A stretch of 49,132 nucleotides of DNA from Bacteroidales bacterium (lineage in GTDB: Bacteria > Bacteroidota > Bacteroidia > Bacteroidales > VadinHA17), in assembly GCA_031396165.1 (NCBI GenBank), contig JANNKF010000170.1, positions 1 through 49,132 on the forward strand, given 5' to 3'. The number at the start of each line of letters is the position of its first letter. Positions within the stretch are counted from its first letter, which is position 1. Under the pieces are notes generated by a model that ran no database searches, was not told the origin of the DNA, and saw only the letters and a list, made by a program, of their open reading frames with translations. The position numbers and the translations under genes are program-made. This document shows positions 26,730 through 44,550 of the stretch, piece after piece.

Positions 26730-28892
26730 ATGGACAGGAGAAAATTTATAAAGACCAGCACTGTTGCAGCAGGAGCATATGTAATAATTGAACCATCAAT
26801 GTTTTCCGGAATTGTGAATCCTGAAGAGGAAACATGGTTCAGTAAACCAATGAGATGGGCACAACTAACACTTGTTGAAAACGATCCGGGAAAATTTGAT
26901 CCTGACTTCTGGCTCAATTATTTTAAGAAAATTCATGCCGATGGAACAACTCTCAGCGCCGGTGGCATAGTAGCATATTACCCGACAAATATCCCTCTGC
27001 ACCACAGAAGTAACTGGCTCGGTACAAGTGATCCTTTCGGATACCTGGTAGAAGGAAGCAGAAAATTGAATATGTCAATAATTGCGAGGACTGATCCCCA
27101 TGCTGTTCGTCAGGATGTTTTTGATGCCCATCCCGACTGGATTTCAGTTACAGCTGAGGGCGAAAAAAGACGACACTGGGCGAATAAAGAACTGTGGGTA
27201 ACCTGTGCCTTTGGTCCATATAATTTTGAGTTTATGAGTCTGGTGCATAAAGAGATAATGCAACGTTATCTGCCAGATGGAATCTTTTCTAACAGGTGGG
27301 CTGGTCATGGCATTTGTTACTGTGAACATTGCACCAAAAATTTCAAAGTCTTTTCAGGTCTTGATCTGCCGAAAAGCAGTGCCCGTTCTGACAAATCGTA
27401 TCAGAAATACATGGAATGGAGCACAAACCGGTTAAAAGAGCTTTGGCTCCTGTGGGATGACATTATAAGGAAAGAGAAGCCCACATCGAGGTTTATTCCA
27501 AATGGATTTCCTGATAAAGTAATAACCGGCCAATTGTCTGATATAGTTTTCACTGACCATCAGGCAAGGAGCGGAAATACATTGCCATGGTCGAACGGAA
27601 AGGGGGCCAAGGAGTTACGTGCTTCAATAGGGATGAAACCCCTTGGAGGGATTTTCAGTGTCGGCGTGGAGGAACAATATAGGTGGAAGGATTCCGTGCA
27701 GACTGAAGCAGAAATCAGGATCTGGGTGGCTGAAGGCACTGCAAACGGGATGCGTCCATGGTTCACAAAGTTTTCAGGAGTTTTGTACGATAAACGGTGG
27801 CTCGATATTGTCGATAAAATCTACCAGGTACATTACAGATGTGAGAGTTATCTGAGAAATATAGTGCCGATGGCTCGTGTAGGAATGGTATTTACAGAAC
27901 AAAACCGTAATTACGGAAGCGAATCGTGGCAACAGAGAAGCGGTGACCATGGTTCAGGAATGTATCATGCACTCATTGAGGCACGTATGCCATTTGAAAT
28001 GGTAAATGACCGCCTTCTCGATGATGAACATCTTAAACAGTTCAGCCTGCTGATTCTTCCGAATATTGCAACTCTTTCGAAGGAGCAGAACGACCAGATA
28101 AGAAAATTTGTCGCAGCCGGAGGGAATATTCTGGCAACTTTTGAAACATCCCTTTACGATGAAGAAGGCAGAAAAAGGGTCGATTTCGGACTTGCCGACA
28201 TATTCGGGGTTTCTTATGATAATGGTATTGAAGGACCACTCCAAAACAGCTATCTAAGGTTAAAGGAAGAGAAACCAGGTGGTAAATTTCATCCGGTTTT
28301 GAAAGATCTTGAAGATGCGTACAGGATAATCAATACGGTCAATAAAGTTAAGGTAATTCACCGGACCTCTTTCCCCGAGCCGGTAACCGTTATTCCATCA
28401 TATCCCGACCTCCCGATGGAAGATGTTTATCCCCGGGTACCGGAAACGGATGACCGTGGCCTCTTTCTCAGGGATACAGGAAATAGCCGGATTGCCTATT
28501 TCCCCGGAGATATTGACAGGACCTTCTGGCAGATAATGAGCAATGATCATGGGAAACTGCTCCGGAACACAATCAGATGGGCACTAAATGAAGAGCCACG
28601 TATCGAGGTAAAAGGACCAGGTGTACTTGATGTCACTTTATGGAGACAAAAGAATTCAATGACAGCCCATCTTGTGAACTTAACTAACCCGATGATGATG
28701 AAGGGACCATTCAGGGAATTGATTCCTGTTAATGCAGAAGTAAGTATTACTATTCCTCAGGGCACCAAAGCCACTGCTGTCCGCCTTCTTGTCAGCGATG
28801 TTAACCCTTCTTTCGAATTAAAAGAAAACAGGATTATACTAAATGTACCACAGATTTTTGACCATGAGATAATTGGAATAGATTTGGGATAA
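26730..28892 (+). CDS. Tat-signal putative glycosidase (GHL6-like TIM barrel plus GH42-type trimerisation/GATase1-like domain)
   Basis: 720-aa ORF with twin-arginine motif MDRRKFIKTSTVAAGAYV. The middle segment FSLLILPNIATLSKEQNDQIRKFVAAGGNILATFETSLYDEEG resembles the GH42 middle domain. The N-terminal family assignment is from memory only. Confidence 0.45.
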   Translation: MDRRKFIKTSTVAAGAYVIIEPSMFSGIVNPEEETWFSKPMRWAQLTLVENDPGKFDPDFWLNYFKKIHADGTTLSAGGIVAYYPTNIPLHHRSNWLGTSDPFGYLVEGSRKLNMSIIARTDPHAVRQDVFDAHPDWISVTAEGEKRRHWANKELWVTCAFGPYNFEFMSLVHKEIMQRYLPDGIFSNRWAGHGICYCEHCTKNFKVFSGLDLPKSSARSDKSYQKYMEWSTNRLKELWLLWDDIIRKEKPTSRFIPNGFPDKVITGQLSDIVFTDHQARSGNTLPWSNGKGAKELRASIGMKPLGGIFSVGVEEQYRWKDSVQTEAEIRIWVAEGTANGMRPWFTKFSGVLYDKRWLDIVDKIYQVHYRCESYLRNIVPMARVGMVFTEQNRNYGSESWQQRSGDHGSGMYHALIEARMPFEMVNDRLLDDEHLKQFSLLILPNIATLSKEQNDQIRKFVAAGGNILATFETSLYDEEGRKRVDFGLADIFGVSYDNGIEGPLQNSYLRLKEEKPGGKFHPVLKDLEDAYRIINTVNKVKVIHRTSFPEPVTVIPSYPDLPMEDVYPRVPETDDRGLFLRDTGNSRIAYFPGDIDRTFWQIMSNDHGKLLRNTIRWALNEEPRIEVKGPGVLDVTLWRQKNSMTAHLVNLTNPMMMKGPFRELIPVNAEVSITIPQGTKATAVRLLVSDVNPSFELKENRIILNVPQIFDHEIIGIDLG

Positions 28893-29082: not shown

Positions 29083-30372
29083 ATGGCAACTACCAGACGA
29101 AAATTCATTACAACATCCATTGCAGGAGGCTTGGCTGCAACGCTGCCCGGTAAAGCATTTATCCCGGATTCTCCATTTCATATAACCGATGAGGTAAGAG
29201 GGAAATATTCAAAACTCGATGAAATACTAAAGAAACCGGTATTCAAAAAGGAGTTTTTTTCAACTCCGGTGATAATTGATACCCTTGAACTGCTGCGATA
29301 TAAAAACAGCTTCATCTGCAGGGTCAGATCAAAAGACGGTGCCGAGGGGATCTCAGTCGGCCATAGTGGTCAGTTGAGAACCCTCTACCCCGTTTTCACA
29401 AATCTGCTTCAGCCATTTTTCATTAATAAGGATGCACGCGACCTGGATCTGTTGATTGAAAAGGTATATATCTATCAGCTCAACTTCAGGCTATCGGGAA
29501 TGGCTCTCGGGGTGCCGCTTGCCACAATCGAATTTGCAATACTGGACATGATGGGACGAATAGCGAAGAAAACCATCGGACAGCTGATCGGTGATATAAA
29601 TAATCCAAATGTTGCTGTTTACCAGGCAACCGAATACCGTGAAAAACCTGTTGCAGAATCTATGGAACTGATAAAGAGGGATGTAGCAGAATATAATGCC
29701 AAAGCTCTGAAAATCAAAGTTGGCGGACTAATGTTCGGTACTGCCGATATTAATGCAGTTGGTCCGGCTGGCAGGACAGAAACGATCATTCCACTGGTCA
29801 GGAAAACTTTCGGAGATGATATGGTTCTTTATGGCGACTCAAACGGATTCTATTCAGTACCGGAAGCAATCAGAGTAGGAAAAATACTTGAAGAGTATAA
29901 ATTTCAGTTTTTTGAAGAACCTGTAATGTTCGACTGGTACGAAGAAACAAAACAGGTTGCCGATGCACTTTCAATACCTGTTGCCGGGGGAGAACAGGAG
30001 TATAGTCTTCATGGATTCCGGTGGCTGATCGCCAATGATGGTGTGCAGATAGTACAGCCCGATTATTTCTATTTTGGAGGTATGATACGCGCAATGAGGG
30101 TTGCCATGATGGCAAACGCTTTTGGGAAAAAATGTACTCCGCATATGACGGGTGGTGATCTGGGATTTCTGTATATGATTCAATTAGTATCAGCATTACC
30201 AAATGCTTTACCTTACCATGAATTTAAAGGATTTAAAACTGATATTATTTATGAATGTAAAACTTCACCCCTGAAAAGCGAAAATGGCGTGGTAAAGGTG
30301 CCAACAGGTCCGGGTTCAGGTGTGGAAATTGACCCGGAATTTATAAGGAAATTCCAGACTGTTCAGGGATGA
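29083..30372 (+). CDS. Enolase-superfamily enzyme, mandelate-racemase subgroup (acid-sugar dehydratase-like), with Tat signal peptide
   Basis: 429-aa ORF with Tat motif MATTRRKFITTSIAGGLAATLPGKAF. Catalytic and metal-ligand pattern: KxK (ALKIKVGG), Asp (YGDSNG), Glu (FFEEP), Glu (GGEQE), and an Asp...His pair (IVQPDYF, CTPHMTGG). Confidence 0.8.
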   Translation: MATTRRKFITTSIAGGLAATLPGKAFIPDSPFHITDEVRGKYSKLDEILKKPVFKKEFFSTPVIIDTLELLRYKNSFICRVRSKDGAEGISVGHSGQLRTLYPVFTNLLQPFFINKDARDLDLLIEKVYIYQLNFRLSGMALGVPLATIEFAILDMMGRIAKKTIGQLIGDINNPNVAVYQATEYREKPVAESMELIKRDVAEYNAKALKIKVGGLMFGTADINAVGPAGRTETIIPLVRKTFGDDMVLYGDSNGFYSVPEAIRVGKILEEYKFQFFEEPVMFDWYEETKQVADALSIPVAGGEQEYSLHGFRWLIANDGVQIVQPDYFYFGGMIRAMRVAMMANAFGKKCTPHMTGGDLGFLYMIQLVSALPNALPYHEFKGFKTDIIYECKTSPLKSENGVVKVPTGPGSGVEIDPEFIRKFQTVQG

Positions 30373-30427: not shown

Positions 30428-31348
30428 ATGATTACTCTGGGAATTCAAAGTGCCATTCTGGGCGATCTCTCTTTTGACGAGCTCATAGATTTTGCATCTG
30501 ATAACGGATTCTCCTGTGTCGAAATGATGTGCTGGCCAAAGGGACAGGCTAACAGGAAATATGCAGGTGTAACTCATATTGATGTTGGCACACTTGATGA
30601 TAATGAGATCAGCAGGATCAATAATAAGCTTAAAGATAGAAATGTATATATCTCAGGACTAGGCTATTATCCCAATCCGCTTGATCCTGACAAAGAGAAA
30701 TCAGATTTCTATATCGCTCATATTAAAAAAGTTATCGATGCTGCAGCCAGGCTTAATATTGGTATAATGAATACTTTTATTGGTGCCGATTCATCAAAAC
30801 ATGACGATGAGAACTTTGATAAATTCAGGCAGATCTGGCCACCCATTATCAGGTATGCAGAGGAGAAAAATGTTAAAATAGGAATTGAAAACTGTCCTAT
30901 GTTTTTTACAAGGGATGAATGGCCTTCGGGGAACAACCTGGCACACTCACCTGCATTATGGAGGAGAATGTTTGAAGCAATTCCATCCAAAAACTTCGGA
31001 TTGAATTATGATCCCTCCCACCTAATATGGCAGATGATGGATTATGTAAAGCCAATTTTCGAATTCAGGGAAAGGATTTTCCATGTGCACATAAAGGATG
31101 CCAGGGTTCTGTGGGAAAGAATAAATGAAGTTGGAATACTGACAACTCCGCTTAATTACCATACTCCAAAACTCCCCGGATTGGGAGATATTAACTGGGG
31201 AAAATTCTTTTCAGCACTTTACGAGGTCGGTTTTAACGGCAGTGCCTGTATAGAGGTTGAAGATAAATCCTTTGAAGGATCGCTTGAAAACAGAAAAACA
31301 GCACTCCTTCAAAGCAGAAACTACCTTCGTCAGTTTATAACCAAATAA
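30428..31348 (+). CDS. Sugar phosphate isomerase/epimerase (xylose-isomerase-like TIM barrel), no signal peptide
   Basis: 306-aa ORF. Family-typical blocks GFSCVEMMCWP, KIGIENCPM, GLNYDPSHLIWQ, HVHIKD and ACIEVED. Confidence 0.8.
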   Translation: MITLGIQSAILGDLSFDELIDFASDNGFSCVEMMCWPKGQANRKYAGVTHIDVGTLDDNEISRINNKLKDRNVYISGLGYYPNPLDPDKEKSDFYIAHIKKVIDAAARLNIGIMNTFIGADSSKHDDENFDKFRQIWPPIIRYAEEKNVKIGIENCPMFFTRDEWPSGNNLAHSPALWRRMFEAIPSKNFGLNYDPSHLIWQMMDYVKPIFEFRERIFHVHIKDARVLWERINEVGILTTPLNYHTPKLPGLGDINWGKFFSALYEVGFNGSACIEVEDKSFEGSLENRKTALLQSRNYLRQFITK

Positions 31349-31383
31349 ATCAATAACCTTACAACACAATAACTAAATAACCA

Positions 31384-31983
31384 ATGAAAAAAACAATCCT
31401 TGCACTATCAGTAATTTTGATTTTTTCCAATTTCTCAGCACCACAGAAAAAAGAATCTCTTTTCAACGGAAAAGACCTAACCGGATGGAAGATCTACGGC
31501 ACAGAAAAATGGTACGTTGAAAATGGTCTTCTTGTTTGCGAAAGTGGTCCAGATAAGAAATACGGTTACCTGGCAACTGAGAAATTCTACAAAAACTTCG
31601 ACATTACAGTTGAATTTCTTCAGGAAGCCAACGGGAACAGCGGTCTCTTTTTCCGTTCAACAATTGAGGGAACAAAAATTGCAGGCTGGCAGTGTGAGGT
31701 GGCTCCGCAGGGAAATGACACAGGTGGTATTTATGAATCTTACGGAAGAGGCTGGCTCAAACAGATTGAAGAAGAAAAAGAGAATATTCTTAAACCTGAA
31801 GAATGGAATAAACTGCGTCTCCGGGTCGAAGGCGACAGAGTGCAGACCTGGCTTAATGGGCAGCCAATGGTTGATTTTGCAGATGAAAAAATCGGTAAAG
31901 CAAACGGTTCAATTGCTCTCCAGATCCACGATGGAGGAGGTATTAAAGTCAAATGGCGCAATCTAATTATTCAGGAGCTTTAG
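31384..31983 (+). CDS. DUF1080 (3-keto-disaccharide hydrolase-like, concanavalin-type) secreted protein
   Basis: 199-aa ORF with a Sec signal peptide. Typical DUF1080 blocks LFNGKDLTGWKIYG, WYVENGLLVC, NFDITVEF, NSGLFFRS and GSIALQIHDGGGIKVKWRNL. Confidence 0.85.
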   Translation: MKKTILALSVILIFSNFSAPQKKESLFNGKDLTGWKIYGTEKWYVENGLLVCESGPDKKYGYLATEKFYKNFDITVEFLQEANGNSGLFFRSTIEGTKIAGWQCEVAPQGNDTGGIYESYGRGWLKQIEEEKENILKPEEWNKLRLRVEGDRVQTWLNGQPMVDFADEKIGKANGSIALQIHDGGGIKVKWRNLIIQEL

Positions 31984-31987
31984 AAAG

Positions 31988-33655
31988 ATGGTTCACCCCG
32001 GACTTGATAAGAAACTGGCGGGAGTTATCCGATATCTCAGGAAGAACAATTTCCTCAGCATAATTCTTCCTGTTGTTATAGGTGTACTGGCTATTATCTG
32101 GTTTCTGATCAGGGTAATACCAAAACCTTCAAGGGCATCATACCCATGCATGAAACTGGCCTATCCGCTGATGTCCGGACTTGTAATTTGGTTATTGGGA
32201 ATAACCGGTATCTACACTTCATTCAAACTAATAGTAAAGTACATTTCAGTCAGGAAATATATTTTTGCATCAATATCAGTTTTGTCTCTTCTCATTTTTG
32301 GTATCATTCATATTACTCTGCAGACCGGATCTGTAGCAGCAAGTCCGGAGTACAAGGATCCTGTCCATATTGCCAATGAGCCTTTTGGTGAAGCAACCGG
32401 AATAGTTCCCGGTCGGGTTATCTGGAACTGGAACCCGGAGGCAACAAATGAGAATTGTACAAATAATATGAATATCGCCGATGGCTATTTTCTGGATAAG
32501 AATAATAATCAGGATGTTATAGATAAAATGCTATCGGATGTCATGAACTCTGTTTCGGACAGAAAGAATATCAAAGAATCATGGAATGCCCTCTTCACAC
32601 ACTTCAATAGTAAGAAAGGAAGAGGTGAAACCGGATATAAAAATGATCAGACAATTTTTATAAAAGTTAATTACGGTTGTGCCAACTGGAACACTAAACC
32701 CGATCTGACAAGAAAAGACGGATCAAAAGGATATGCTGAAACTTCGCCACAGCTGATTTTGTCTCTGCTCAGGCAGCTGGTGAATACTGCAGGTGTTCCC
32801 CAGGAGAGGATTTTTGTTGCCGACCCTATGGCTCACATTTATTCAGATGTTTTTGATATACTCCACAACGAATTTCCCGATGTAAAATATGGGGATAAGG
32901 CAAGTACTTCAACAGCAATCGGCCGTACTCTGCTTACTCCTGAGAAGACGCCTGCACTGATTTATTCCGATAAAGGTACTGTCCTGACAAAACCATCCGA
33001 TTGTCTTTATTCTGAAATGCAGAATGCTGATTATCTTATAAATATATCTGCCCTGAAGGCACATGGATGTGCGGGTGTTACATTCACAGCCAAGAACCAT
33101 TTTGGTTCAATAGCGAGCAATACTGCTTCACATCTGCATGCTGCACTTGTCGGGTCAAGGAACGACCAGCCTTACAGGGTTGATTACGGTATGTACAGGA
33201 TACAGGTTGACCTTATGAGCAGTAAATACCTGGGAGGCAATACATTATTATATATTGTTGACGGATTATGGGGTGGAACAGAGGCTACTGAAACCCCAGT
33301 AAAATGGCAGATGCCACCATTTAATAATGACTGGCCAAGTTCGCTTTTTGCTTCACTCGACCCCGTAGCCCTCGAATCGGTCTGCTTCGATTTTTTAAGG
33401 TATGAAACAAAAATCGGTCTCCCTCAATGGAAAAACAGGGCAAACATGGCTCAGGGTGTGGATGATTATCTTCACCAGGCAGCTTCAAAGGAAAACTGGC
33501 CAAAAGATATTACTTATGATCCTGATAACAGTGGAAAACCAATCAGCAGTCTCGGCATTCATGAACACTGGAACAATCCGGTGGAGAAAAACTATTCCAG
33601 AAATCTTGGTAAATCTACAGGTATTGAGTTAGTTAAGATTTCTGCTGTTAAGTAG
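31988..33655 (+). CDS. DUF362 domain protein with N-terminal multi-TM anchor
   Basis: 555-aa ORF. It starts 4 nt after the DUF1080 stop. The first ~115 aa contain 3-4 hydrophobic helices. The block INISALKAHGCAGVTFTAKNHFGS matches the DUF362 signature as I remember it. Confidence 0.65.
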   Translation: MVHPGLDKKLAGVIRYLRKNNFLSIILPVVIGVLAIIWFLIRVIPKPSRASYPCMKLAYPLMSGLVIWLLGITGIYTSFKLIVKYISVRKYIFASISVLSLLIFGIIHITLQTGSVAASPEYKDPVHIANEPFGEATGIVPGRVIWNWNPEATNENCTNNMNIADGYFLDKNNNQDVIDKMLSDVMNSVSDRKNIKESWNALFTHFNSKKGRGETGYKNDQTIFIKVNYGCANWNTKPDLTRKDGSKGYAETSPQLILSLLRQLVNTAGVPQERIFVADPMAHIYSDVFDILHNEFPDVKYGDKASTSTAIGRTLLTPEKTPALIYSDKGTVLTKPSDCLYSEMQNADYLINISALKAHGCAGVTFTAKNHFGSIASNTASHLHAALVGSRNDQPYRVDYGMYRIQVDLMSSKYLGGNTLLYIVDGLWGGTEATETPVKWQMPPFNNDWPSSLFASLDPVALESVCFDFLRYETKIGLPQWKNRANMAQGVDDYLHQAASKENWPKDITYDPDNSGKPISSLGIHEHWNNPVEKNYSRNLGKSTGIELVKISAVK

Positions 33656-33663
33656 TTCCTGAT

Positions 33664-34626
33664 TTATTTCGTCAAAGTGTAAAACTCATATCTTATTGTC
33701 CACTCGGTAACTTCACCCGGTTCAGCTTTTATTTTGATATATGGTTCAGGACAAAGTGTCGTTGCACAGTTCCAGTAATTTAGTTTCTGAAATGGTCTGT
33801 CGCATCTTATCCTTACACCTGCACCTGTTTTTCGGTTTTCAATTCTGATATCATAATCCTTTGGATCAGGTCCAAACCCTTTCATCTCACCGCAAAATAC
33901 TGTTTCTCCGTCTTTTACAGTCCGGAGGAACTGAATACTATTGTCTTTAATTTCAGCCAGCTCTCCGATACCCTGACCGGTGCCTGTAATATTGAATGGG
34001 AACTTAATTATAAAATCAGGACCAATCGGCTGATTATCAATAACAAAGAAATTATGATCATAAGCACTTGTTTCAATCGTTTTTGTTCCTGTGTTTTTAA
34101 GTGTATGATGAAGTACAAGTTCGGGCTTATCTTTTGTAAGACTGACTGTTTTCTCATAGTGATATGAGTAGATTTTATCGTTGAGATCATGAATAAATAA
34201 TACCTGGTCTGATTGTTTTTTCACACTCCATGTACCGGCATTTACCACAGGATAAAGTCTGCTGAAAGTGTATGGCTTATCATCAGGTTTTGTGAGTACA
34301 CCCACTCCTATCTTGATGAAATTCTCTCCTGGCTTTGTTTCCGGATAGTCCAGTGCAACGAACTCTTCAACCGGACCCATGATAACATCATGTATTTCAG
34401 GACTATATTTTGCGAACCACTGTCCAAAATAACTGTGTCCTTTATATTCAAGTACAGGCATATTGCCTGACCAGTCGAACCGGGTACCCCTGTAATATCC
34501 TTTCTTTGCATCGGGAAGATAAAATTTTGCATTTATTATACCATTTGTAATCTCTGCCTGTGGAATCTTCATAAACGGTAATGCGCTGATTGTCAGTCCG
34601 GATAAAAAATAATATAGTCTTTTCAT
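33664..34626 (-). CDS. Secreted galactose-mutarotase-like (aldose 1-epimerase superfamily) protein, tentative
   Basis: The track ORF starts at a TTG (34674). The ATG at 34626 gives MKRLYYFLSGLTISALPFM, a signal peptide. LKNTGTKTIETSAYDHNFF and NYWNCATTLCPEPY resemble mutarotase-fold blocks. Recognised by eye. Confidence 0.4.
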   Translation of the reverse strand: MKRLYYFLSGLTISALPFMKIPQAEITNGIINAKFYLPDAKKGYYRGTRFDWSGNMPVLEYKGHSYFGQWFAKYSPEIHDVIMGPVEEFVALDYPETKPGENFIKIGVGVLTKPDDKPYTFSRLYPVVNAGTWSVKKQSDQVLFIHDLNDKIYSYHYEKTVSLTKDKPELVLHHTLKNTGTKTIETSAYDHNFFVIDNQPIGPDFIIKFPFNITGTGQGIGELAEIKDNSIQFLRTVKDGETVFCGEMKGFGPDPKDYDIRIENRKTGAGVRIRCDRPFQKLNYWNCATTLCPEPYIKIKAEPGEVTEWTIRYEFYTLTK

Positions 34627-34670
34627 ACCTTTTAATTTTACTGTTAATATATTAACACAAGAATATTTTG

Positions 34671-35822
34671 TCAACCGTTCTTTGCCACTGCTTCAATTAG
34701 TCCTCTTATGTAACCTGCTGCATACAGGCTCCCAAGTGCACTGTAGCCCGGGCTTTGGTTACTGTCTCCAGCCATTGTCGGCACATGATCGGGACGTAAT
34801 GGACCCTGAAAACCTGTTTCAATATAAGCTTTCATGGCAGCATACATATCTATCTGGCCTTCATCATGAAAGGTCTCTTCAAAATTCATTTTCCCTCCCC
34901 TCACATTTCTGAAATGTACAAAATGAATCAGTTGCTTATTGCCAAATTCCCTGACAAGTGTTGGAATATCTTCACCCATAAGTGAAAAATTTCCCTGGCA
35001 CATTGTAATCCCGTTATTAGGACTGGGGTATATAGCAGCCATTCTTCTGAAAGCATCAGCTGTTGTCATAATTCTTGATATGCCCCTGATGCTCTCGACC
35101 TGGGGATCATCGGGATGCATCGCAAGTTTTATTCCGGCCTTTTCTGCTTCAGGAACAACAGCCTTCAGGAAGTATTCAAGGTTTTTCCAGAGACTCTCTT
35201 TGGATACATCCCCATATTTTGTAAGGGTGTTATCCTTAATATCCTCATAATCAAATGCTGTAACAAGCGCTCCTCCCCTTCCCGGACGATCAGTTGTGGT
35301 ACGTGCCCAGCTGATAACCGGCATCCAGTTATAACAGATTGTATCTATACCAGCCTTTGAGAGATTCTTCATCAGGGTTATGAAGTTTGAGATCTCCTGA
35401 TCCCTTCCTTCAAGGCCAAGCTTAGTTTTTTCACCAAGTGATGGCGGACCCTCAATCACTTCAAGTTTTAATCCTGCTTTTTCCCAGACATTTTTTACAG
35501 CAGAAACTGCCTCAAGATCCCATGAATTAACATTCTGCAGACCTGCCATCCGCGGATTTATTCCACCAACTGCGCCAAGCACATTTAGCTGCTTGCCGAA
35601 CTCAGCCTTTCTCTTTTCAGCTTCCAACCCTCCGAAATAAGCGAAACACATTTTAATCCCTGCGTCGGGAATATACTCTTTTGATTTAACCTTTTTCTTC
35701 GGTAGCATATCATGTAAAACAGAATCACCTGTCAGTCCTGAAACCGATGAATTCATTCCGATAACCGACAGAGCAGCCAGTGCTGTTCCTTTTTTGAGAA
35801 AATCCCTTCTATTATTCTTCAT
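34671..35822 (-). CDS. UxuA-family mannonate dehydratase homologue with Tat signal peptide
   Basis: 383-aa ORF with Tat motif MKNNRRDFLKKGTALAALSV. UxuA blocks align by eye with E. coli UxuA: CYNWMPVISWARTT, FLKAVVPEAEKAGIKLAMHPDDP, ITMCQG, HFVHFRNV, DMY, LRPDH and SPGYSALG. Confidence 0.8.
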   Translation of the reverse strand: MKNNRRDFLKKGTALAALSVIGMNSSVSGLTGDSVLHDMLPKKKVKSKEYIPDAGIKMCFAYFGGLEAEKRKAEFGKQLNVLGAVGGINPRMAGLQNVNSWDLEAVSAVKNVWEKAGLKLEVIEGPPSLGEKTKLGLEGRDQEISNFITLMKNLSKAGIDTICYNWMPVISWARTTTDRPGRGGALVTAFDYEDIKDNTLTKYGDVSKESLWKNLEYFLKAVVPEAEKAGIKLAMHPDDPQVESIRGISRIMTTADAFRRMAAIYPSPNNGITMCQGNFSLMGEDIPTLVREFGNKQLIHFVHFRNVRGGKMNFEETFHDEGQIDMYAAMKAYIETGFQGPLRPDHVPTMAGDSNQSPGYSALGSLYAAGYIRGLIEAVAKNG

Positions 35823-35840
35823 CTTATATAGTTCTGATTA

Positions 35841-37202
35841 TCAAGGTTTAATTATTGTTCCATCACTCGATCTCACCTGCCAGTTCGAACGTGTGTTTAT
35901 CGGATATTTTGCTGCTTCCTTTTCATTTATATCAACTCCAAGTCCGGGCACCTCATTTACCGACATATAACCTTTATTCATTGTAGGGCAACCTGAAAAA
36001 ACCGATTGAAGCTTTTCTGAGAAACTAACCGATTCCTGAATCCCAAAATTCCAGACCGCCAGGTCCATATGGCAATTCGCAGCATGGCCCACAGGAGATA
36101 CATCACCCGGTCCGTGCCATGCAGTTCGTATGTTGAACCACTCACCCAAACGAGCTATTTTCATAGCAGGTGTTATTCCACCAATCTGCGAAACATGAAC
36201 CCGAATATAATCGAACCACTGGTTTACCATAGGCATTTTGAACTCATTAACATTATTGAAAAGTTCACCCATTGCAATTGGCACAGATGTGGTAGCCCGA
36301 AGCTGTTTGAACCACTCCATGTTCTCGGGAGAAAACGGATCTTCAATAAAGAAAGGATTATATTCCTCCACCCTTTTTATAAGATTAATTGCATCTATCG
36401 GTTGAACCCGTTCATGAATATCATGAAGCAGTTCAACTTCCTCACCACATGCTTTACGTACTGCTTCGAACATTTTCGGGACCGAATTAAGATAAGCTCT
36501 CTGATCCATGAAATTATCGGTTGCACCACCAAAGCCCACCTCTTTAAAGTCAGGCTTGGATCCCAAAGTTCCAACCCCGCCATAACCACCAAGCTGGATC
36601 CGGATATGCCTGAATCCCTGTTCCATAAAGCGCTTTACGGATTGGACTACCTCTTCATTTGTCCGGCCGCTGGCATGAGTATAGCATGGAACAGCAAACC
36701 TGGCTTTTCCTCCAAGCAACTGAGGTACAGGCATTCCGGCGCGTTTGCCTTTGATATCCCATAAAGCCTGATCTACACCACTTAGCGCATTATTCAAAAC
36801 CGGACCATTCCTCCAGTAAGAACTGACATAAGCCCCCTGCCACATATCTTCAATATTATCAACATCTTTGCCTGTGCAAAAATCATTCAGGTAACTATTA
36901 ATTGCAGTTATAACGACCTCAGCACGCTGGGTAAAGGTAGCACATCCCAATCCATATAACCCCGGTTCGGTTGTTTCAACTTTAACAACAATAAGGTTTG
37001 ATCCAGCAGGAGCAGTGGCTATTGCTTTCACGCTTTTTATTTTAACGGGAGCCATCCCGCTTGCGTAAGAGGGCTTTACATAATTTTCAGCCCTGGCAAA
37101 TGGCGCACCGAATAGTCCCAACAGTCCGGCAGTTGAACCGGCAGCCAGAAGTTTCATTGCATCGCGGCGGCTGGTTATTGGTTTAGATTCAGAATTTTTC
37201 AT
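35841..37202 (-). CDS. Enolase-superfamily ManD-subgroup (D-mannonate/D-gluconate dehydratase-like) protein with Tat signal peptide
   Basis: 453-aa ORF with Tat motif ITSRRDAMKLLAAGSTAGLLGLFGAPFARA. ManD-type blocks VKVETTEPGLYGLGCATFTQR, SSYWRNGPVLNNALSGVDQALWDIKGK, LLHDIHERV, FFIEDP and AMGELF. Confidence 0.8.
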   Translation of the reverse strand: MKNSESKPITSRRDAMKLLAAGSTAGLLGLFGAPFARAENYVKPSYASGMAPVKIKSVKAIATAPAGSNLIVVKVETTEPGLYGLGCATFTQRAEVVITAINSYLNDFCTGKDVDNIEDMWQGAYVSSYWRNGPVLNNALSGVDQALWDIKGKRAGMPVPQLLGGKARFAVPCYTHASGRTNEEVVQSVKRFMEQGFRHIRIQLGGYGGVGTLGSKPDFKEVGFGGATDNFMDQRAYLNSVPKMFEAVRKACGEEVELLHDIHERVQPIDAINLIKRVEEYNPFFIEDPFSPENMEWFKQLRATTSVPIAMGELFNNVNEFKMPMVNQWFDYIRVHVSQIGGITPAMKIARLGEWFNIRTAWHGPGDVSPVGHAANCHMDLAVWNFGIQESVSFSEKLQSVFSGCPTMNKGYMSVNEVPGLGVDINEKEAAKYPINTRSNWQVRSSDGTIIKP

Positions 37203-37275: not shown

Positions 37276-37434
37276 TTATTCATAAACTTAGTTAAGATGC
37301 TCTATTCCTTTGTGTTCCTTTGTGCTGTACTTTGTGTTCCTTCGTGGTAAAAAAAAGCTTAACCACAAACCTGCATGCCGGTAGGCAGGGGCGCACTAAG
37401 GATTACACAAAGGATCACAAAGGTTTATGAATAA
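37276..37434. repeat. 159-bp palindromic element (family F4: CCTTTGTG / CACAAAGG words) in a divergent promoter region
   Basis: Termini TTATTCATAAAC (37276-37287) and GTTTATGAATAA (37423-37434) form a perfect 12-bp inverted repeat. The left half has CCTTTGTG x2, ACTTTGTG and CCTTCGTGG. The right half has CACAAAGG x2. The centre has TTAACCACAAA plus hairpin CCTGCATGCCGGTAGGCAGG (37370-37389). Confidence 0.8.
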
Positions 37435-37534: not shown

Positions 37535-38407
37535 ATGAAAAAACTATCAAGAAGAGAATTTCTGGGCAAAAGTGCACTTGGGATCGGATCGGTTGTTCTG
37601 GCATCCCGTCTCCCTGTTGAGGCATATGGTTCTGAACCTCCGAAACCCGTTAAAATGCCGCTGGGATTTCAGGTCTGGACTGTAAAGGATAAGCTGATTA
37701 AAGATTTTCCGGGAACATTAAAAGAGATTGCGGGTTTAGGATATAAATCCGTTGAGATGTGTTCTCCTCCCGGATATGAGAGTTCTGGGTTTGGACCACT
37801 GATGAAGCTGACAGCCAAAGAGATGAAGAAGATAATTAACGATGCCGGACTCTCTTTTGACAGCACTCATTATGGAATGTCGGAACTGAGAAAGCAGCTC
37901 GATGAACGGATTGCGTTTGCCGGAGAATCGGGTCAGAAACAGATGATACTCTCCAGTTTCGGATTACCAAAAACGGCAACTATGAGCGATTGGATGAAAG
38001 CTGCTGATGAGCTTAATACAATTGGAATGAAAACAAAACAATCGGGAATTCAGATTGGCTTTCACAACCACCATGCCGAATTTGAAAAAATAGATGGTAC
38101 ACTCATTTATGATGAATTGCTCAAACAGTTTGATCCTGACTATGTTAAGATGCAATTCCAGGTTGCAGTTATCAGCATCGGATATAAAGCTTCGGACTAT
38201 TTTACAAAATACCCGGGCAGATTCATCTCCGCACATCTTGCTGACTGGTCACCAACTGAAAAGAAAAATGTAACCCTCGGAAAGGGAATTGTTGATTGGA
38301 AAGAATTTTTCGCCGCGATCGATAAAGGTGGTGTTAAGAACATCTTTGTCGAAATGGATATAGAAACTTTTAAAGATAGTGCAACATTCATTAACTCCGG
38401 TCTTTAG
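37535..38407 (+). CDS. Sugar phosphate isomerase/epimerase (xylose-isomerase-like TIM barrel) with Tat signal peptide
   Basis: 290-aa ORF with Tat motif MKKLSRREFLGKSALGIGSVVLA. TIM-barrel blocks GYKSVEMCSP, IGFHNHHAEF and IFVEMD. Confidence 0.8.
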   Translation: MKKLSRREFLGKSALGIGSVVLASRLPVEAYGSEPPKPVKMPLGFQVWTVKDKLIKDFPGTLKEIAGLGYKSVEMCSPPGYESSGFGPLMKLTAKEMKKIINDAGLSFDSTHYGMSELRKQLDERIAFAGESGQKQMILSSFGLPKTATMSDWMKAADELNTIGMKTKQSGIQIGFHNHHAEFEKIDGTLIYDELLKQFDPDYVKMQFQVAVISIGYKASDYFTKYPGRFISAHLADWSPTEKKNVTLGKGIVDWKEFFAAIDKGGVKNIFVEMDIETFKDSATFINSGL

Positions 38408-38439
38408 GCCGGAGATAACCTAATCAAAATACTTTAAAA

Positions 38440-39948
38440 ATGGCACGTTCAAAACAAATTAATCGTCGTGAATTTCTGGGATCAGCCGCAGCTGCTTCCC
38501 TCGCTATTACAATTGTTCCCCGTCAGGTTCTTGGTGGTAAGGGTTATATAGCCCCAAGTGATAAAGTAACTCTTGGATACATAGGATGCGGAACACAGGG
38601 TTTGAGAGAGATGGCATCTCTCATTGCAAATCCGGCATTGCAGATCGTTGCCGTATGCGACCCTAACAAATTCACCACCGATTATGTGGACTGGTCAGCC
38701 AATGATGTCAGGAATGGTATCAGAAAGGCATTAGGCGATAATACCTGGGGTGAAGCAATAAAAGGTATTCCCGGCGGAAGGGACATCGGTCAGGAATTTG
38801 TCCAGAAATACTATGGAAAAGCCAAAGATTCAGGCACATACAAAGGATGTGCATCTTATGAGGATTTCAGGGAATTGCTTGAAAAAGAAAAAGACCTGAA
38901 TGCTATAAAAATCATGACTCCTGATCATTTGCATGGAACTGTTGCAATTGCATCCCTTAAAAAAGGGAAACATGTGGTAACTCATAAACCAATTGCCAAC
39001 AGGATGCATGAAGCAAAACTTCTGATCGATACTGCTAAGAAAACCGGTCTGAGCACACATCTTCTTGCCTGGAGTAACAGACCTGATTATCTGATCATCA
39101 AAAAGTGGATTGACGAAGGAAAAATCGGAAAACTAAAAGAGATTCATAACTGGTCCAACAGACCTGTGTGGCCACAGTGGCAGGCAAATCCGGTTGAAAC
39201 TGTTCCGGTACCAAAAAACTTTAACTGGGATCTCTGGCTTGGACCTGTTCCTGACCGTCCTTATCATCCTAATTACACACATGCAGTGTTCCGTGGGTGG
39301 TATGACTTTGGCGCAGGAAGTATTGCAGATATGGGGCATTACAGCCTTTTCCCGTTATTTCTTGCGCTCGGAATAAATAAACCGGCAATCAGCGCCGAAT
39401 CATATGCCACAACAACATGTGCCCTGCAAAACAATGTATCCGTAGGGGTTAAAAATGATGTGGCTTTTCCTTTATCCTGCATGGTAAGATTTAAGTTTGA
39501 AGCACAGCCAACACTTCCTGCTTTCGACCTGTATTGGTACGATGGAGGTATGAGACCATTCCCCACACCGGATCTGGAAGCTGTAGGGAAAACATTTGAA
39601 AGGGAAGGAATGATGTTTGTGGGTGAAAAAGGAAGAATAGTAGCCGGATTCAGAGGAGAGAAACCTGTGCTTTATGCAAATGGAACAACTGCGGTGGGAG
39701 AACCGGTAACTGCAGCAAGTCTCGCACAGGATAGTAACGATGTATGGATCAACTCATTCAGGAACAATACCCAGTCCCCGGGTAGTTTTCTATATGCCGG
39801 ACCGGTAACTGAAACCATACTTTTGGGTGGAGTAGCATTGAGGGCAGGTAAAAAGGTTGAATATGACACAGTTAATATGAAAATCAGCAATCTGCCGGAT
39901 GCGAACAAGTACCTCGTAAGGGAGTATCGTAAGGGTTGGGAACTTTAG
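38440..39948 (+). CDS. Gfo/Idh/MocA-family NAD(P)-dependent oxidoreductase with Tat signal peptide
   Basis: 502-aa ORF with Tat motif SKQINRREFLGSAAAASLAITIV. Rossmann start LGYIGCGTQGLREM. Also IMTPDHLHGTVAIASLKKGKHVVTHKP. Confidence 0.85.
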   Translation: MARSKQINRREFLGSAAAASLAITIVPRQVLGGKGYIAPSDKVTLGYIGCGTQGLREMASLIANPALQIVAVCDPNKFTTDYVDWSANDVRNGIRKALGDNTWGEAIKGIPGGRDIGQEFVQKYYGKAKDSGTYKGCASYEDFRELLEKEKDLNAIKIMTPDHLHGTVAIASLKKGKHVVTHKPIANRMHEAKLLIDTAKKTGLSTHLLAWSNRPDYLIIKKWIDEGKIGKLKEIHNWSNRPVWPQWQANPVETVPVPKNFNWDLWLGPVPDRPYHPNYTHAVFRGWYDFGAGSIADMGHYSLFPLFLALGINKPAISAESYATTTCALQNNVSVGVKNDVAFPLSCMVRFKFEAQPTLPAFDLYWYDGGMRPFPTPDLEAVGKTFEREGMMFVGEKGRIVAGFRGEKPVLYANGTTAVGEPVTAASLAQDSNDVWINSFRNNTQSPGSFLYAGPVTETILLGGVALRAGKKVEYDTVNMKISNLPDANKYLVREYRKGWEL

Positions 39949-41308: not shown

Positions 41309-43462
41309 CTATATCTTTTTCAGCGCCTCCAGCACTCTTGCAGGTGTCATCGGCATCCTGTAAAGTCTTGCTCCGGTAGCATCATAAATTGCATTGGCAA
41401 TTACAGCGCCGATAACAACTATAGCAGGTTCGCCTCCGCCCTGGGGAGCCTTGTCTTTCCTGTCAAGAATTACAGTGTCTATTTTAGGAAGCCAGGAGAA
41501 TTTCGGAATATTATAAGTATCAAATCCTCTGTCGATAATTTTACCTCCTTCAAAGAAAAGTTCTTCTGCAAAAGTATATCCCAGCCCCATCATTATACAT
41601 CCTTCCATCTGAATGGTGGCTCCTTCAGGATTAACACACAAACCCATATCCTGTGCACAGGCAATTCTTAAAACAGTCACCTTACCGGTAGCTCTGTCTA
41701 CCTTTACCTCAGCCATATGAGCCACCCATGTTCCGGCATCGGTACCGACTGCCACTCCGATGCCCCGTCTGCTTGGAGACTTAGCGGCAACATAACCGAA
41801 TTTTTCAGCTACCGCTTTAAGGCAGCCGATCATCTTTTCGTCTTTAAGGTTTTTCAGACGGAATTCAAGAGGATCAATTCCCGCTGCAGAAGCCATAATA
41901 TCAATCTGAACCTCACGTGCAAAAGTATTTGTATTTGCATTAGGTCCACGCCATGGTCCGGTACTGAACGGATGAACCGGAGGTGCCTCCCTGTTGCGGC
42001 TATAGTCGGTTGTCTTTGCGTTCGGAACATCATAGAGTGTTTCGGAACCTCTTGTGCCGGCAAAATATACATGATAATCCCAGAGTTTTATCATTCCCTC
42101 TTTATCAATTCCCGACTTAATTTTTATTACTGCTGCAGAATGAAAATTATCATAGAAAAACTCCTCATCACGCGTCCATAAAACCATAACCGGTTTACCG
42201 GCAAGTTTAGCCAGCTTTGCAGCCTCAATGCCCTGCTGATAAGCACTCTTTCCACCGAAACCACCACCCACAAACGGGACTATCACCCTTACCTTATCGA
42301 GAGTCAATCCAAGTTCCCTTGAAAGTGCATCCTGTAATGGATAAGGTGTCTGGGTTGCGGCCCAAACAGTCATTTTGCCATTTTCCAATTGCGCAAGAGC
42401 AGTATGGGTTTCCATCGGGGCATGTGCCAGATACGGATCGTGAAATTCCGATTCAAAAATCTTTTCGGATTGCTGACGTCCAATCTCGAGATCTCCCTTT
42501 GTTCTGCCTACATTGGCCCTTGAATCAACCTTAAGCATCCATTCAAAAATTGTTTTATCGTTAACAGGCATCTCATTGAATGAGTATTCTGCTTTTATTT
42601 TAGAGAGAGATGTGCCGGCTTTTTCCCAGCTTTCATGCAAAACAGCTACCAGATCTCCCTGGCGAATAATTTTTACGCCCGGATCCTTTTCTGCCTCAGA
42701 ATAATTTACCGTAGTAAGTTTTGCACCATGCGACGGTGGCCTGAGTATTCTTGCATAGACCATACCCGGAAGTTTCATGTCGCCGGTATATTTTGCAGCT
42801 CCCGTAACTTTCAGATTAGCATCGCTGTGAATGTAAGATTTGCCTACATACGTGAATTTAGTATAATCCTCCGGAGTTGGTTTTACATCAAGGAATTTTT
42901 CAATTCTCTTACCCTTGGCCAGTTGACCATAACTCGCTGAATTTTTAGAATTCTTTGTATCGGTTATAATCCCTTCTTTTACTTCAAGTTGTGTTGCAGG
43001 AACTCCCAGCTGCACAGATGCGAGATCCAGAAGCACGCCTCTGGCTTCCGCTGCTGCTGCCCTCATTGCAGGACCAAAGCCCCTTGTAGTCATTGATCCC
43101 CAGGTACCTCCGTCCCATGGACAAAGATCCGTATCACCCATAACCATCTTAATTTTTTCAAGAGGAACATTCAACTCATCTGCCATCATCTGTGGCAGGG
43201 AGGTAATGATGCCCTGTCCCATTTCAATTTTTCCTGTAAAACAGGTTACCATGCCATCCCCGGCAATCGACAGAAATGCATTATAGTCTTTGGGCAGGCT
43301 TCGTGCCTGATCTCCCGGAAGTCCCAGTAAATCTATCGCACCCCAAGGCCGGAAAAAGATTATTATACCGCTCCCGAGAATTTTGAAAAAGTCACGTCTT
43401 GGTATTCCACTGCGCCCTGTGGATGCAGATTTATCAATATTTGCCATTGCTTCTTTTTTCAT
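41309..43462 (-). CDS. Xanthine-dehydrogenase-family molybdopterin-binding large subunit (IorB/aldehyde-oxidoreductase-like) with Tat signal
   Basis: 717-aa ORF with Tat motif GIPRRDFFKILGSGIIIFF. Typical blocks GKIEMGQGIITSLPQMMADEL, VPFVGGGFGGKS and GGGEPAIVVIGAVIANAIYDATG. Confidence 0.85.
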   Translation of the reverse strand: MKKEAMANIDKSASTGRSGIPRRDFFKILGSGIIIFFRPWGAIDLLGLPGDQARSLPKDYNAFLSIAGDGMVTCFTGKIEMGQGIITSLPQMMADELNVPLEKIKMVMGDTDLCPWDGGTWGSMTTRGFGPAMRAAAAEARGVLLDLASVQLGVPATQLEVKEGIITDTKNSKNSASYGQLAKGKRIEKFLDVKPTPEDYTKFTYVGKSYIHSDANLKVTGAAKYTGDMKLPGMVYARILRPPSHGAKLTTVNYSEAEKDPGVKIIRQGDLVAVLHESWEKAGTSLSKIKAEYSFNEMPVNDKTIFEWMLKVDSRANVGRTKGDLEIGRQQSEKIFESEFHDPYLAHAPMETHTALAQLENGKMTVWAATQTPYPLQDALSRELGLTLDKVRVIVPFVGGGFGGKSAYQQGIEAAKLAKLAGKPVMVLWTRDEEFFYDNFHSAAVIKIKSGIDKEGMIKLWDYHVYFAGTRGSETLYDVPNAKTTDYSRNREAPPVHPFSTGPWRGPNANTNTFAREVQIDIMASAAGIDPLEFRLKNLKDEKMIGCLKAVAEKFGYVAAKSPSRRGIGVAVGTDAGTWVAHMAEVKVDRATGKVTVLRIACAQDMGLCVNPEGATIQMEGCIMMGLGYTFAEELFFEGGKIIDRGFDTYNIPKFSWLPKIDTVILDRKDKAPQGGGEPAIVVIGAVIANAIYDATGARLYRMPMTPARVLEALKKI

Positions 43463-43464
43463 GC

Positions 43465-43941
43465 TTATTTCCCTCCTTTCATTTCAGTGGAAGCCGTCTT
43501 AACAGCCTCAACGATCCTTACATGAGCGCCACAACGGCATAAATTATCTTCCATTCCTTCCTTTATCTGCCCTGTAGTCGGAGAAGGATTTTTAAGTAAC
43601 AAACCAGTTGCATTCATGATCATCCCGGGTGTACAGAAACCGCACTGCAGCGCATCATGCTCAACGAATGCTTTCTGAACAGGGTGTAACTTTCCATTGA
43701 CGGAAAGACCTTCTATTGTAACCACTTTTTTACCGGCAACTTCCCCAACGGGGATCTGGCAGGATCTTACAGCTTCATTGTCTATTAATACAGTACATGA
43801 ACCACAGAATCCCATTCCGCAGCCATACTTGGTTCCTGTAAGCCCGAAATGATCACGCAGCACCCACAAGAGTGTCTGTGCAGGATCGAGCAGGGCTTCA
43901 GTTTTTTTTCCATTTAACTGAAAAGCAATCTTCTGTTCCAT
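43465..43941 (-). CDS. (2Fe-2S)-binding small subunit of the molybdenum hydroxylase
   Basis: 158-aa ORF. Two cluster motifs: GCGMGFCGSCTV and CGFCTPGMIM...CRCGAH. It lies 2 nt upstream of the large-subunit gene. Confidence 0.9.
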   Translation of the reverse strand: MEQKIAFQLNGKKTEALLDPAQTLLWVLRDHFGLTGTKYGCGMGFCGSCTVLIDNEAVRSCQIPVGEVAGKKVVTIEGLSVNGKLHPVQKAFVEHDALQCGFCTPGMIMNATGLLLKNPSPTTGQIKEGMEDNLCRCGAHVRIVEAVKTASTEMKGGK

Positions 43942-43943
43942 AA

Positions 43944-44537: not shown

Positions 44538-44550
44538 TCTTAAATTCTAT

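Follow-up and report, generated by a model that had tools for sequence, protein, structure and literature searches.

Predicted Tat-exported ManD-type and UxuA-type dehydratases encoded with a mutarotase-fold protein in a Bacteroidales operon

The acid-sugar dehydratases of the ManD and UxuA families are regarded as enzymes that break down hexuronates and aldonates in the cytoplasm. Why, then, should one operon of a Bacteroidales bacterium encode a member of each family behind a twin-arginine (RR) leader, predicted to direct export by way of twin-arginine translocation (Tat)? The operon was studied in the window, by which we mean the whole of the 49,132-bp NCBI contig JANNKF010000170.1 (GC content about 40%). 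It contained genes for a ManD-like protein (gene 1), a UxuA-like protein (gene 2) and a predicted-secreted protein with a mutarotase fold (gene 3). On balance, we favour the reading that the operon encodes two Tat-exported, metal-dependent acid-sugar dehydratases and a mutarotase-fold protein exported by the general secretory (Sec) pathway, serving a periplasmic oxidative sugar route.

The three genes and their families

The genes and their predicted signal peptides were found at the following positions.

35841..37202, minus strand: ManD-subgroup enolase-superfamily dehydratase homologue with RR leader, 453 aa (Pfam, NCBIfam and PDB matches)
34671..35822, minus strand: UxuA-family dehydratase homologue (xylose-isomerase-like TIM barrel) with RR leader, 383 aa (PF03786)
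33664..34626, minus strand: predicted-secreted protein with galactose-mutarotase (aldose-1-epimerase-like) fold, 320 aa from ATG (AlphaFold2 and Foldseek)
37089..37202, minus strand: predicted Tat signal peptide of the ManD-like protein, residues 1-38, MKNSESKPITSRRDAMKLLAAGSTAGLLGLFGAPFARA, followed by E
35736..35822, minus strand: predicted Tat signal peptide of the UxuA-like protein, MKNNRRDFLKKGTALAALSVIGMNSSVSG, cleavage site uncertain
34555..34626, minus strand: predicted Sec-type signal peptide of the mutarotase-fold protein, MKRLYYFLSGLTISALPFMKIPQA

The listing of open reading frames (ORFs) and direct reading of the minus strand both gave three co-directional genes at these coordinates. 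The gaps, read directly in the sequence, were exactly 18 nt between genes 1 and 2 and 44 nt between genes 2 and 3, as an earlier sequence-only reading of the stretch had described. The motifs quoted in that reading (LLHDIHERV, FFIEDP, AMGELF, HPDDP, HFVHFRNV, RPDH, SRRDAMK...FARA and NRRDFLK) were all found. A TTG at 34674 was rejected as the start of gene 3, being an over-extension; the orthologues and the NCBI gene call (P0121) have 320 aa. Because the genes share a strand, are separated by short gaps and contain internal terminator-like sites no more often than expected from shuffled sequence, we read them as a single operon. The scan for promoters and terminators gave no signal exceeding the shuffle expectation, and Rfam gave no match over the whole window.

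The ManD-like protein contained an MR_MLE N-terminal capping domain (PF02746, 5.4e-18) and a C-terminal barrel domain (MR_MLE_C, PF13378, 2.8e-46), and the UxuA-like protein matched PF03786 at 5.2e-90 (302 bits; cut-off 23.7); these Pfam assignments are far beyond chance. The ManD equivalog NF043051 and the subfamily PRK15072 ('D-galactonate dehydratase family') were the top two NCBIfam models for the ManD-like protein despite scores below their cut-offs. Its best PDB matches were 3T6C, 4IHC and 3TW9 (E about 1e-138, 464-467 bits), with 54% identity to 3T6C of Pantoea over 407 residues; canonical ManD and RspA structures scored about 285-325 bits. The ManD-subgroup survey of Wichelecki and co-workers (2014) reportedly separates high-efficiency, low-efficiency and gluconate-specific clusters, and we take 3T6C, 4IHC and 3TW9 to represent the low-efficiency gluconate-type cluster of that survey. 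A rough neighbour-joining tree placed the window protein in a separate Bacteroidota clade, and its relatives carry the automatic database annotations 'mannonate dehydratase', 'starvation-sensing protein RspA' and 'enolase C-terminal domain-like protein'.

The R201, D261, H263, E287, E313, H363 and E390 residues of the ManD-like protein were conserved with E. coli RspA and with the cluster representatives. D261, E287, E313 and H263 aligned with RspA and with 20 of the 21 representatives of clusters formed at 50% identity. The three carboxylate Mg ligands (D261, E287 and E313) and the D-x-H general-acid histidine (His263), assigned by their presumed correspondence to NaManD residues, were all retained. 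Of the Arg-Tyr dyad expected as general base in the 150-180s loop, Arg201 was conserved; the family has its tyrosine, Tyr207, in a shorter GGYGG loop, as in 3T6C.

The UxuA-like protein passed the cut-off of the NCBIfam mannonate-dehydratase subfamily PRK03906 (261 bits; cut-off 191) and fell narrowly under that of the equivalog TIGR00695 (188.2 bits against 199.55). It matched 3BAN, 1TZ9 and 4EAC in the PDB, co-matched AP_endonuc_2 in Pfam and showed 34% identity with E. coli UxuA. The H236, D238, D239, C275, H303, R305, H319, D325, R343, D345, H346 and Y360 residues were invariant between these two proteins, as were all residues of the HPDDP, TMC, H-x-R and RPDH motifs, which also aligned with S. 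suis UxuA; their functional roles are presumably those of the known enzymes. Both family assignments of the sequence-only reading, and its statement that the catalytic residues are intact, were borne out by these matches and alignments. It had also presented the two proteins as a pairing of the two families that dehydrate D-mannonate. Both families are indeed present, but a shared reaction is not established, because the ManD-like protein lies below the NCBIfam ManD cut-offs and has 3T6C, 4IHC and 3TW9 as its nearest relatives.

It is very unlikely that one or both dehydratases are non-catalytic pseudoenzymes, for example sugar-acid binding proteins. Such a loss is seen in a related RR-led cluster, P0364, and many members of the ManD subgroup reportedly showed no detectable activity in the published screen. 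The window proteins and all their close orthologues, however, retain all the metal ligands and the acid/base candidates, and pseudoenzyme status was rejected on this ground; of the losses set beforehand as refuting results for the dehydratases, that of the metal ligands was not found in either protein, and for the general base the loop tyrosine of the ManD-like protein lay outside the canonical column. The P0364 protein (438 aa, representative of a cluster at 50% identity) was sister to the window clade in the rough tree and contained LMYETSTQ in place of LLHDIHER, so that the Mg-ligand Asp and the acid His are lost; it may be an exported paralogue that has no catalytic function or has taken on another one.

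The mutarotase-fold protein gave no Pfam or NCBIfam match at E<=0.01, PF01263 included, and neither phmmer nor a profile search of PDB sequences returned a match to a mutarotase or to any other entry. It has 7727 homologues, every one unnamed or called 'hypothetical protein'. An AlphaFold2 model made with 33 homologues (predicted local distance difference test, pLDDT, 80; predicted template modelling score, pTM, 0.81) was searched against the PDB with Foldseek, and the top 28 matches were all mutarotase-like (aldose-1-epimerase/GalM-like; E 2.6e-11 to 5e-7). The best was E. coli YphB 3NRE (E 2.6e-11); the fold matches had template modelling (TM) scores of 0.42-0.57 (about 0.55 for the top ones) and 10-14% identity. 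Going by the model, 'mutarotase-like' holds at the level of the fold, outside PF01263. The sequence-only reading had credited gene 3 with a Sec signal and mutarotase-like blocks. The signal-like N-terminus (basic residues followed by a hydrophobic stretch, with model residues 1-20 helical at low confidence) and the mutarotase fold stood, whereas no similarity was detectable at the level of sequence.

The residues H65, H80, D81, H192, E264, D277 and E295 were invariant in this family and D258 nearly so. A weak hhalign match (probability 2.5%) set LKNTG..YDHNFF of the family opposite VTNQG..GWHPYF of YphB and placed the invariant H192 (YDHNFF) on the H-P-Y-F histidine of YphB; the probability against GalM was 0.7%. 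No sequence-level link of gene 3 to mutarotases emerged from phmmer, the profile search or hhalign. H192 and E295 (CPEPY) are candidates for the catalytic His and Glu, and H65, H80, D277 and D258 are further candidates for these or for the substrate-positioning His and Asp.

The export leaders

The leader of the ManD-like protein, read by eye, contained SRRDAMK, a 19-residue uncharged h-region and F-A-R-A followed by E. The leader of the UxuA-like protein passed the TIGR01409 TAT_signal_seq model (17.8 bits; cut-off 16.7), and MKNNRR[DE]F was present in 13/13 of its orthologues read. All orthologues read, 13 for each dehydratase, had RR leaders; they shared 76-92% identity with the window proteins and came from Prolixibacteraceae, Chryseolinea, Spirosoma and Larkinella. 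Over the wider set of orthologues with conserved leaders, which spans Bacteroidales, Cytophagales, Sphingobacteriales and Chitinophagales, identity was 75-92%.

A genome scan gave 490 relatives, and the comparisons were made on the best 80 loci, all from Bacteroidota (Bacteroidales, Cytophagales, Sphingobacteriales and Chitinophagales). An RR leader was called from an in-frame RR plus h-region, and a Sec-like signal from a crude pattern. In these loci, RR plus h-region was present in 83/84 ManD-like and 9/12 UxuA-like copies, in 19/19 and 20/24 enolases of the two Spirosoma types and in 8/8 Gfo/Idh/MocA proteins. Sec-like signals were present in 20/23 dehydrogenases dependent on pyrroloquinoline quinone (PQQ), 27/40 mutarotase-fold proteins and 7/7 DUF1080 proteins. 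The control families had no signal: DGOK-family kinase (0/13), KDPG-type aldolase (0/11; KDPG stands for 2-keto-3-deoxy-6-phosphogluconate) and LacI (0/15), or 0/39 together. The claim that the RR leaders of both dehydratases are real was thus upheld; their absence from close orthologues, set beforehand as a refuting result, was not observed.

The ATG start and the length of 1362 nt were identical in the window ManD-like gene and its 13 orthologues. Over the 91 pairs of these sequences, the ratio of nonsynonymous to synonymous differences per site (pN/pS) was 0.35 in the leader and 0.11 in the core, and synonymous sites were almost saturated (pS about 0.7); purifying selection acts on the leader. 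That the leaders are a start-codon artefact or non-functional, and the proteins an ordinary cytoplasmic ManD and UxuA of hexuronate catabolism, is extremely unlikely. In its favour, an internal methionine, M50, lies just ahead of the conserved core of the ManD-like protein, and the ManD-like leader scores under the TIGR01409 threshold. Against it, M50 is replaced by Leu in most orthologues, the leader recurs in 83 of the 84 copies while the cytoplasmic neighbour families have none, and the annotated ORFs of the window included no hexuronate genes of the uxuB, uxaC or kduI type. Start-codon mis-assignment was accordingly rejected, given the conserved start and length, the purifying selection on the leader and the non-conserved M50.

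RR leaders were also found on further ManD-subgroup clusters (P0362, P0364, P0369, P0373 and P0387). Because these clusters stand at only 40-49% identity, predicted export of ManD-type proteins is a broad phenomenon and no local oddity. Tat export is a sensible route for enzymes which need folding, oligomerisation and loading with Mg2+ or Mn2+ beforehand, and in MncA it allows Mn to be loaded in the cytoplasm. Seven RR-led proteins occur in a stretch of about 17 kb in the window, which implies that the Tat pathway is in use; no tat genes were seen within the 49-kb contig.

Gene neighbourhoods and the proposed route

Synteny was examined by tblastn over the 80 loci, with a neighbour defined as a gene within 10 kb of the ManD-like gene. 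The mutarotase-fold protein was the most frequent neighbour (40/80 loci), followed by another enolase-superfamily gene (28/80), SusC/D (25/80), PQQ-cytochrome c dehydrogenase (23/80), LacI (15/80), RraA-like (14/80), major facilitator superfamily (MFS) transporter (14/80), DGOK-family kinase (13/80), KDPG-type aldolase (11/80) and UxuA-like (10/80) genes. The general partner of the ManD-like gene is therefore the mutarotase-fold protein rather than the UxuA-like protein. ManD and UxuA as an obligate pair was rejected, as both lie within 10 kb in only 10 of the 80 loci and each occurs alone.

The order of the window, Gfo(-), ManD, UxuA, GalM-like(+), DUF1080(-), XI-TIM(-), in which GalM-like stands for the mutarotase-fold gene and XI-TIM for a xylose-isomerase-like TIM barrel, was repeated in five Bacteroidales metagenome-assembled genomes (L007, L009, L011, L014 and L015). 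The DUF1080 and XI-TIM pair was found beside the cassette in these five and in L010, and a Gfo/Idh/MocA gene adjoined it in 8/80 loci, RR-led in all eight. The close relatives L005, L010 and L012 lacked a UxuA-like gene and had the GalM-like gene straight after the ManD-like gene, and in L089 a UxuA-like gene alone occupied the same slot. Because each dehydratase gene occurs there without the other, the slot is a variable cassette and the two are separable; their adjacency is confined to one Bacteroidales lineage.

In Sphingobacteriales, the order was ManD-like, GalM-like and RR-led XI-TIM. The Spirosoma locus (L001, Spirosomaceae) contained LacI, RR-enolase, SusC, SusD, ManD-like and RR-enolase genes, followed by GalM-like, PQQ-cytochrome c dehydrogenase, kinase, aldolase and MFS genes. 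The enzymes upstream of the MFS gene in this gene order were signal-bearing, and the kinase and aldolase were signal-less. The earlier suggestion that the substrate arrives in the periplasm as a reducing sugar or lactone gains support from such ManD-like loci, in which mutarotase-fold, PQQ dehydrogenase and SusC/D genes are followed by a signal-less kinase and aldolase.

RraA-like genes (PF03737, aldolase/RraA family) contained Sec-like signals in 16/19 cases and alternated with RR-led enolases beside the ManD-like gene in Chryseolinea/Cytophagales loci (L025, L038, L040, L042, L046, L064, L070 and L071; also L002, 7517-8509). Speculatively, they would suit a periplasmic cleavage of 4-hydroxy-2-keto acids.

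The route that we propose would run as follows. Sugars would reach the periplasm by local glycosidase release or by SusC/D uptake, and the mutarotase-fold protein would hold them in the anomer required by a dehydrogenase. A periplasmic dehydrogenase would then oxidise C1, giving the lactone and the aldonate; in the Cytophagales relatives this would be the PQQ-cytochrome c dehydrogenase, and in the window the candidates are an RR-led Gfo/Idh/MocA protein and an RR-led molybdo-oxidoreductase. Both dehydratases, folded and metal-loaded in the cytoplasm and exported by Tat, would turn aldonates into 2-keto-3-deoxy-aldonates in the periplasm. From the nearest characterised relatives, the most plausible substrates would be D-gluconate and/or D-mannonate for the ManD-like protein and D-mannonate for the UxuA-like protein, with 2-keto-3-deoxy-gluconate as the product of both. 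The two dehydratases could then be complementary rather than redundant. A transporter would import the 2-keto-3-deoxy acids, to be phosphorylated and cleaved by an aldolase in the cytoplasm.

The operon was found within a dense block of predicted exported carbohydrate enzymes. The following genes are context, outside the operon.

26730-28892, plus strand: GHL6 / GH42M-like protein, 720 aa, RR leader (MDRRKFIKTS), no NCBIfam match
29083-30372, plus strand: second enolase-superfamily protein, RR leader MATTRRKFITTS (Pfam)
30428-31348, plus strand: XI-like TIM barrel, signal-less (Pfam)
31384-31983, plus strand: DUF1080 '3-keto-disaccharide hydrolase', Sec-like signal (Pfam)
31988-33655, plus strand: DUF362 protein, N-terminal membrane anchor (Pfam)
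37535-38407, plus strand: XI-like TIM barrel, RR leader, divergent from the operon (Pfam/NCBIfam, including TAT_signal)
38440-39948, plus strand: Gfo/Idh/MocA oxidoreductase, RR leader, divergent from the operon (Pfam/NCBIfam)
41309-43941, minus strand: molybdo-oxidoreductase large subunit (MoCoBD; RR leader GIPRRDFFKILGSGIIIFF) and 2Fe-2S small subunit

A homologue of the GHL6-like protein with 74% identity was found near the cassette in L010. The second enolase-superfamily protein is unrelated to the ManD subgroup (nearest PDB entries 3U4F, 3TCS and 3T8Q). The DUF362 gene is convergent with the mutarotase-fold gene and ends 9 nt from its stop; its homologues were found beside the cassette in 7/80 loci and, in L002 (12522-15243), were split into proteins of 156 aa and 728 aa. 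The genes at 37535-39948 and 30428-31983 resemble a periplasmic 3-keto-glycoside glycan-cleavage toolkit, which flanks the dehydratase cassette on both sides. GH43 and GH2 genes were also present in the window, farther from the operon.

The molybdo-oxidoreductase cluster (41309-45696, minus strand) also contained a MobA-like protein and XdhC. Its best NCBIfam matches included glyceraldehyde dehydrogenase and the periplasmic PaoABC-type aldehyde oxidoreductase, all under their cut-offs, and in L088 and L089 it showed synteny with the UxuA-like locus. It could be a periplasmic aldose/aldehyde oxidase acting before or after the dehydratases.

An imperfectly palindromic element, about 160 bp long (37276-37434), lay in the intergenic space that separates the ManD-like gene from the divergent XI-TIM gene. 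It contained perfect 12-nt terminal inverted repeats (TTATTCATAAAC and GTTTATGAATAA) and three copies of CTTTGTG(T/A)TCCTT(T/C)GTG, which form 30-nt arms. The motif was unique to this element within the window and had no Rfam match. It might serve as an array of regulatory operators, or be a small mobile or repetitive extragenic palindromic (REP)-like element.

Several points weigh against the periplasmic dehydratase route. What the analysis shows is the gene structure, the families, the intact catalytic residues, leaders that are conserved and under selection, the modelled mutarotase fold and the way in which signals are distributed among the neighbours; from sequence we infer export, enzyme activity, substrates, the order of the steps and flux. 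The chief weakness for the window is that the adjacent oxidoreductase resembles a C3 glycoside dehydrogenase and not a C1 dehydrogenase, and that no 2-keto-3-deoxy-acid transporter, kinase or aldolase was seen among the annotated ORFs; no PQQ dehydrogenase was found in the window either. The ManD-like protein scored 397.2 bits with NF043051 (cut-off 550) and 389.2 bits with PRK15072 (cut-off 430), its family has Leu in the column of the RspA loop tyrosine, and we take its closest solved relatives to be catalytically poor. Its leader gave no TIGR01409 match at E<=0.01. The leader of the UxuA-like protein has no clear A-x-A cleavage site, and for this reason the protein may remain membrane-tethered. 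The mutarotase assignment of gene 3 comes from its modelled fold.

We consider it rather unlikely that the exported proteins have been recruited to a periplasmic 3-keto-glycoside (oxidative, non-hydrolytic) toolkit, with keto-sugars or glycals and no free aldonates as substrates. The UxuA-like barrel could then, in the manner of its Tat-exported XI-TIM neighbours, work as an enzyme of elimination or isomerisation, and UxuA does belong to the same TIM-barrel superfamily, as the AP_endonuc_2 co-match indicates. The cassette of the window lineage always lies between the RR-led Gfo/Idh/MocA and XI-TIM pair and the DUF1080 and XI-TIM pair, and the window oxidoreductase best matched 8TDF and 8TDH in the PDB (1e-53) and, in NCBIfam, the BT_2158 glycoside 3-dehydrogenase family (277 bits, under the cut-off of 750). 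In Sphingobacteriales, the RR-led XI-TIM gene follows the ManD-like and mutarotase-fold genes, between which the window lineage has the UxuA-like gene. Both proteins, however, retain full acid-sugar dehydratase catalytic sets, the UxuA-like protein passes the mannonate-dehydratase subfamily cut-off, and the ManD-like genes of Cytophagales are linked to 2-keto-3-deoxy-acid kinase, aldolase and PQQ dehydrogenases without 3-keto-pathway genes.

Still less probable is a role on C1-oxidised oligosaccharides that enter through SusC/D, for example products of lytic polysaccharide monooxygenases or dehydrogenases, with the dehydratases attacking the aldonate end. A 2-keto-3-deoxy end would let the 4-O-linked glycan leave by beta-elimination, which is a non-hydrolytic cleavage. 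The circumstantial points in its favour are the predicted location of the enzymes in the periplasm, where oligosaccharides are processed, the SusC/D linkage in 25 of the 80 loci and the co-localisation with other elimination-type periplasmic enzymes. The linkage to kinase, aldolase and MFS genes, however, suits monomeric 2-keto-3-deoxy-hexonates, and in solved structures the active sites of known ManD and UxuA enclose monosaccharide acids.

The periplasmic dehydratase route might also extend further than the operon. We hold it possible, if doubtful, that a non-phosphorylative pathway of the Entner-Doudoroff kind operates largely in the periplasm of Bacteroidota and, judging by the RR-led clusters at 40-49% identity, probably of other groups too. 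PQQ, molybdenum or Gfo-type aldose oxidation would be followed by Tat-exported dehydratases, and in some lineages (Chryseolinea loci) secreted RraA-like aldolases would cleave the products, so that only small keto-acids would enter the cell. In its extreme form, the dehydratases would attack oxidised oligosaccharide ends and the glycan would be cleaved by elimination.

Significance and comparison with known systems

We know of no exported ManD, UxuA or enolase-superfamily dehydratase. Full-text searches of the literature turned up no report that ManD, UxuA or enolase-superfamily dehydratases are targeted to Tat or located in the periplasm, and none of PQQ routes linked to polysaccharide utilisation loci (PULs); the only full-text paper containing all the terms mentioned Tat just for a GH28 enzyme. 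The families are known, and their systematic predicted export appears undescribed; a further element without annotation is the mutarotase-fold family. The predicted export recurs widely, is conserved and concerns an unexpected compartment. Conserved and selected Tat leaders on both dehydratases would make the committed dehydration of an Entner-Doudoroff-type route a periplasmic step, and the same would apply to several other enolase-superfamily paralogues across hundreds of Bacteroidota genomes from soil and sediment. Should this be confirmed, PUL-linked 'orphan' enolases, Gfo/Idh/MocA proteins, XI-TIM barrels and DUF1080 proteins would be read differently. The ManD branch, whose nearest solved relatives are presumably poor catalysts of unclear role, would gain a physiological context, and the large unannotated mutarotase-fold family, with at least 7,700 proteins, a role that can be tested. 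The cultured carriers Spirosoma, Larkinella, Dyadobacter, Pedobacter and Daejeonella make the proposal directly testable.

The 3T6C cluster (Pantoea 3T6C, Dickeya 4IHC and Salmonella 3TW9) has the same two-domain MR/MLE architecture as the ManD-like protein, and 3T6C shares with it the D-x-H motif, the Glu-Glu Mg ligands, Arg201 and the short G-x-Y-G-G loop tyrosine. The ManD-like protein differs by its 38-residue twin-arginine leader, which is absent from the solved proteins and from E. coli RspA, and by the lack of about 13 residues of 3T6C loop insertions. The UxuA-like protein has its TIM-barrel family in common with known UxuA (4EAC of E. coli, 3BAN of S. suis and 1TZ9 of E. faecalis), to which it adds the RR leader and a variable linker of about 25 residues, whereas the enterobacterial insert of about 60 residues in E. 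coli UxuA is absent. Its gene, unlike those of known UxuA, does not lie in a uxu or kdu hexuronate operon. The gene 3 model shares the beta-supersandwich fold of the aldose 1-epimerase superfamily (YphB 3NRE and L. lactis GalM 1L7K), whereas the protein is predicted to be secreted, belongs to its own large unannotated family and has no PF01263 match.

Parts of the proposed route have precedents. The glucose-fructose oxidoreductase (GFOR) of Zymomonas is a Tat-exported sugar oxidoreductase, a periplasmic mutarotase accompanies the PQQ glucose dehydrogenase in Acinetobacter, and a UxuA-type dehydratase takes part in the oxidative mannose catabolism of Thermoplasma. Tat export of cofactor-loaded sugar enzymes is known for GFOR-type systems and is predicted here for the window dehydratases. 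To our knowledge, the known systems that oxidise sugars in the periplasm go no further there than the aldonate or keto-aldonate, and dehydration takes place in the cytoplasm. In the PQQ routes of Pseudomonas, Acinetobacter and Gluconobacter and the GFOR route of Zymomonas, sugar is converted to aldonate outside the cytoplasm, as proposed here; the aldonate or keto-aldonate is then imported and dehydrated in the cytoplasm, whereas the dehydratases of the present operon are predicted to be periplasmic.

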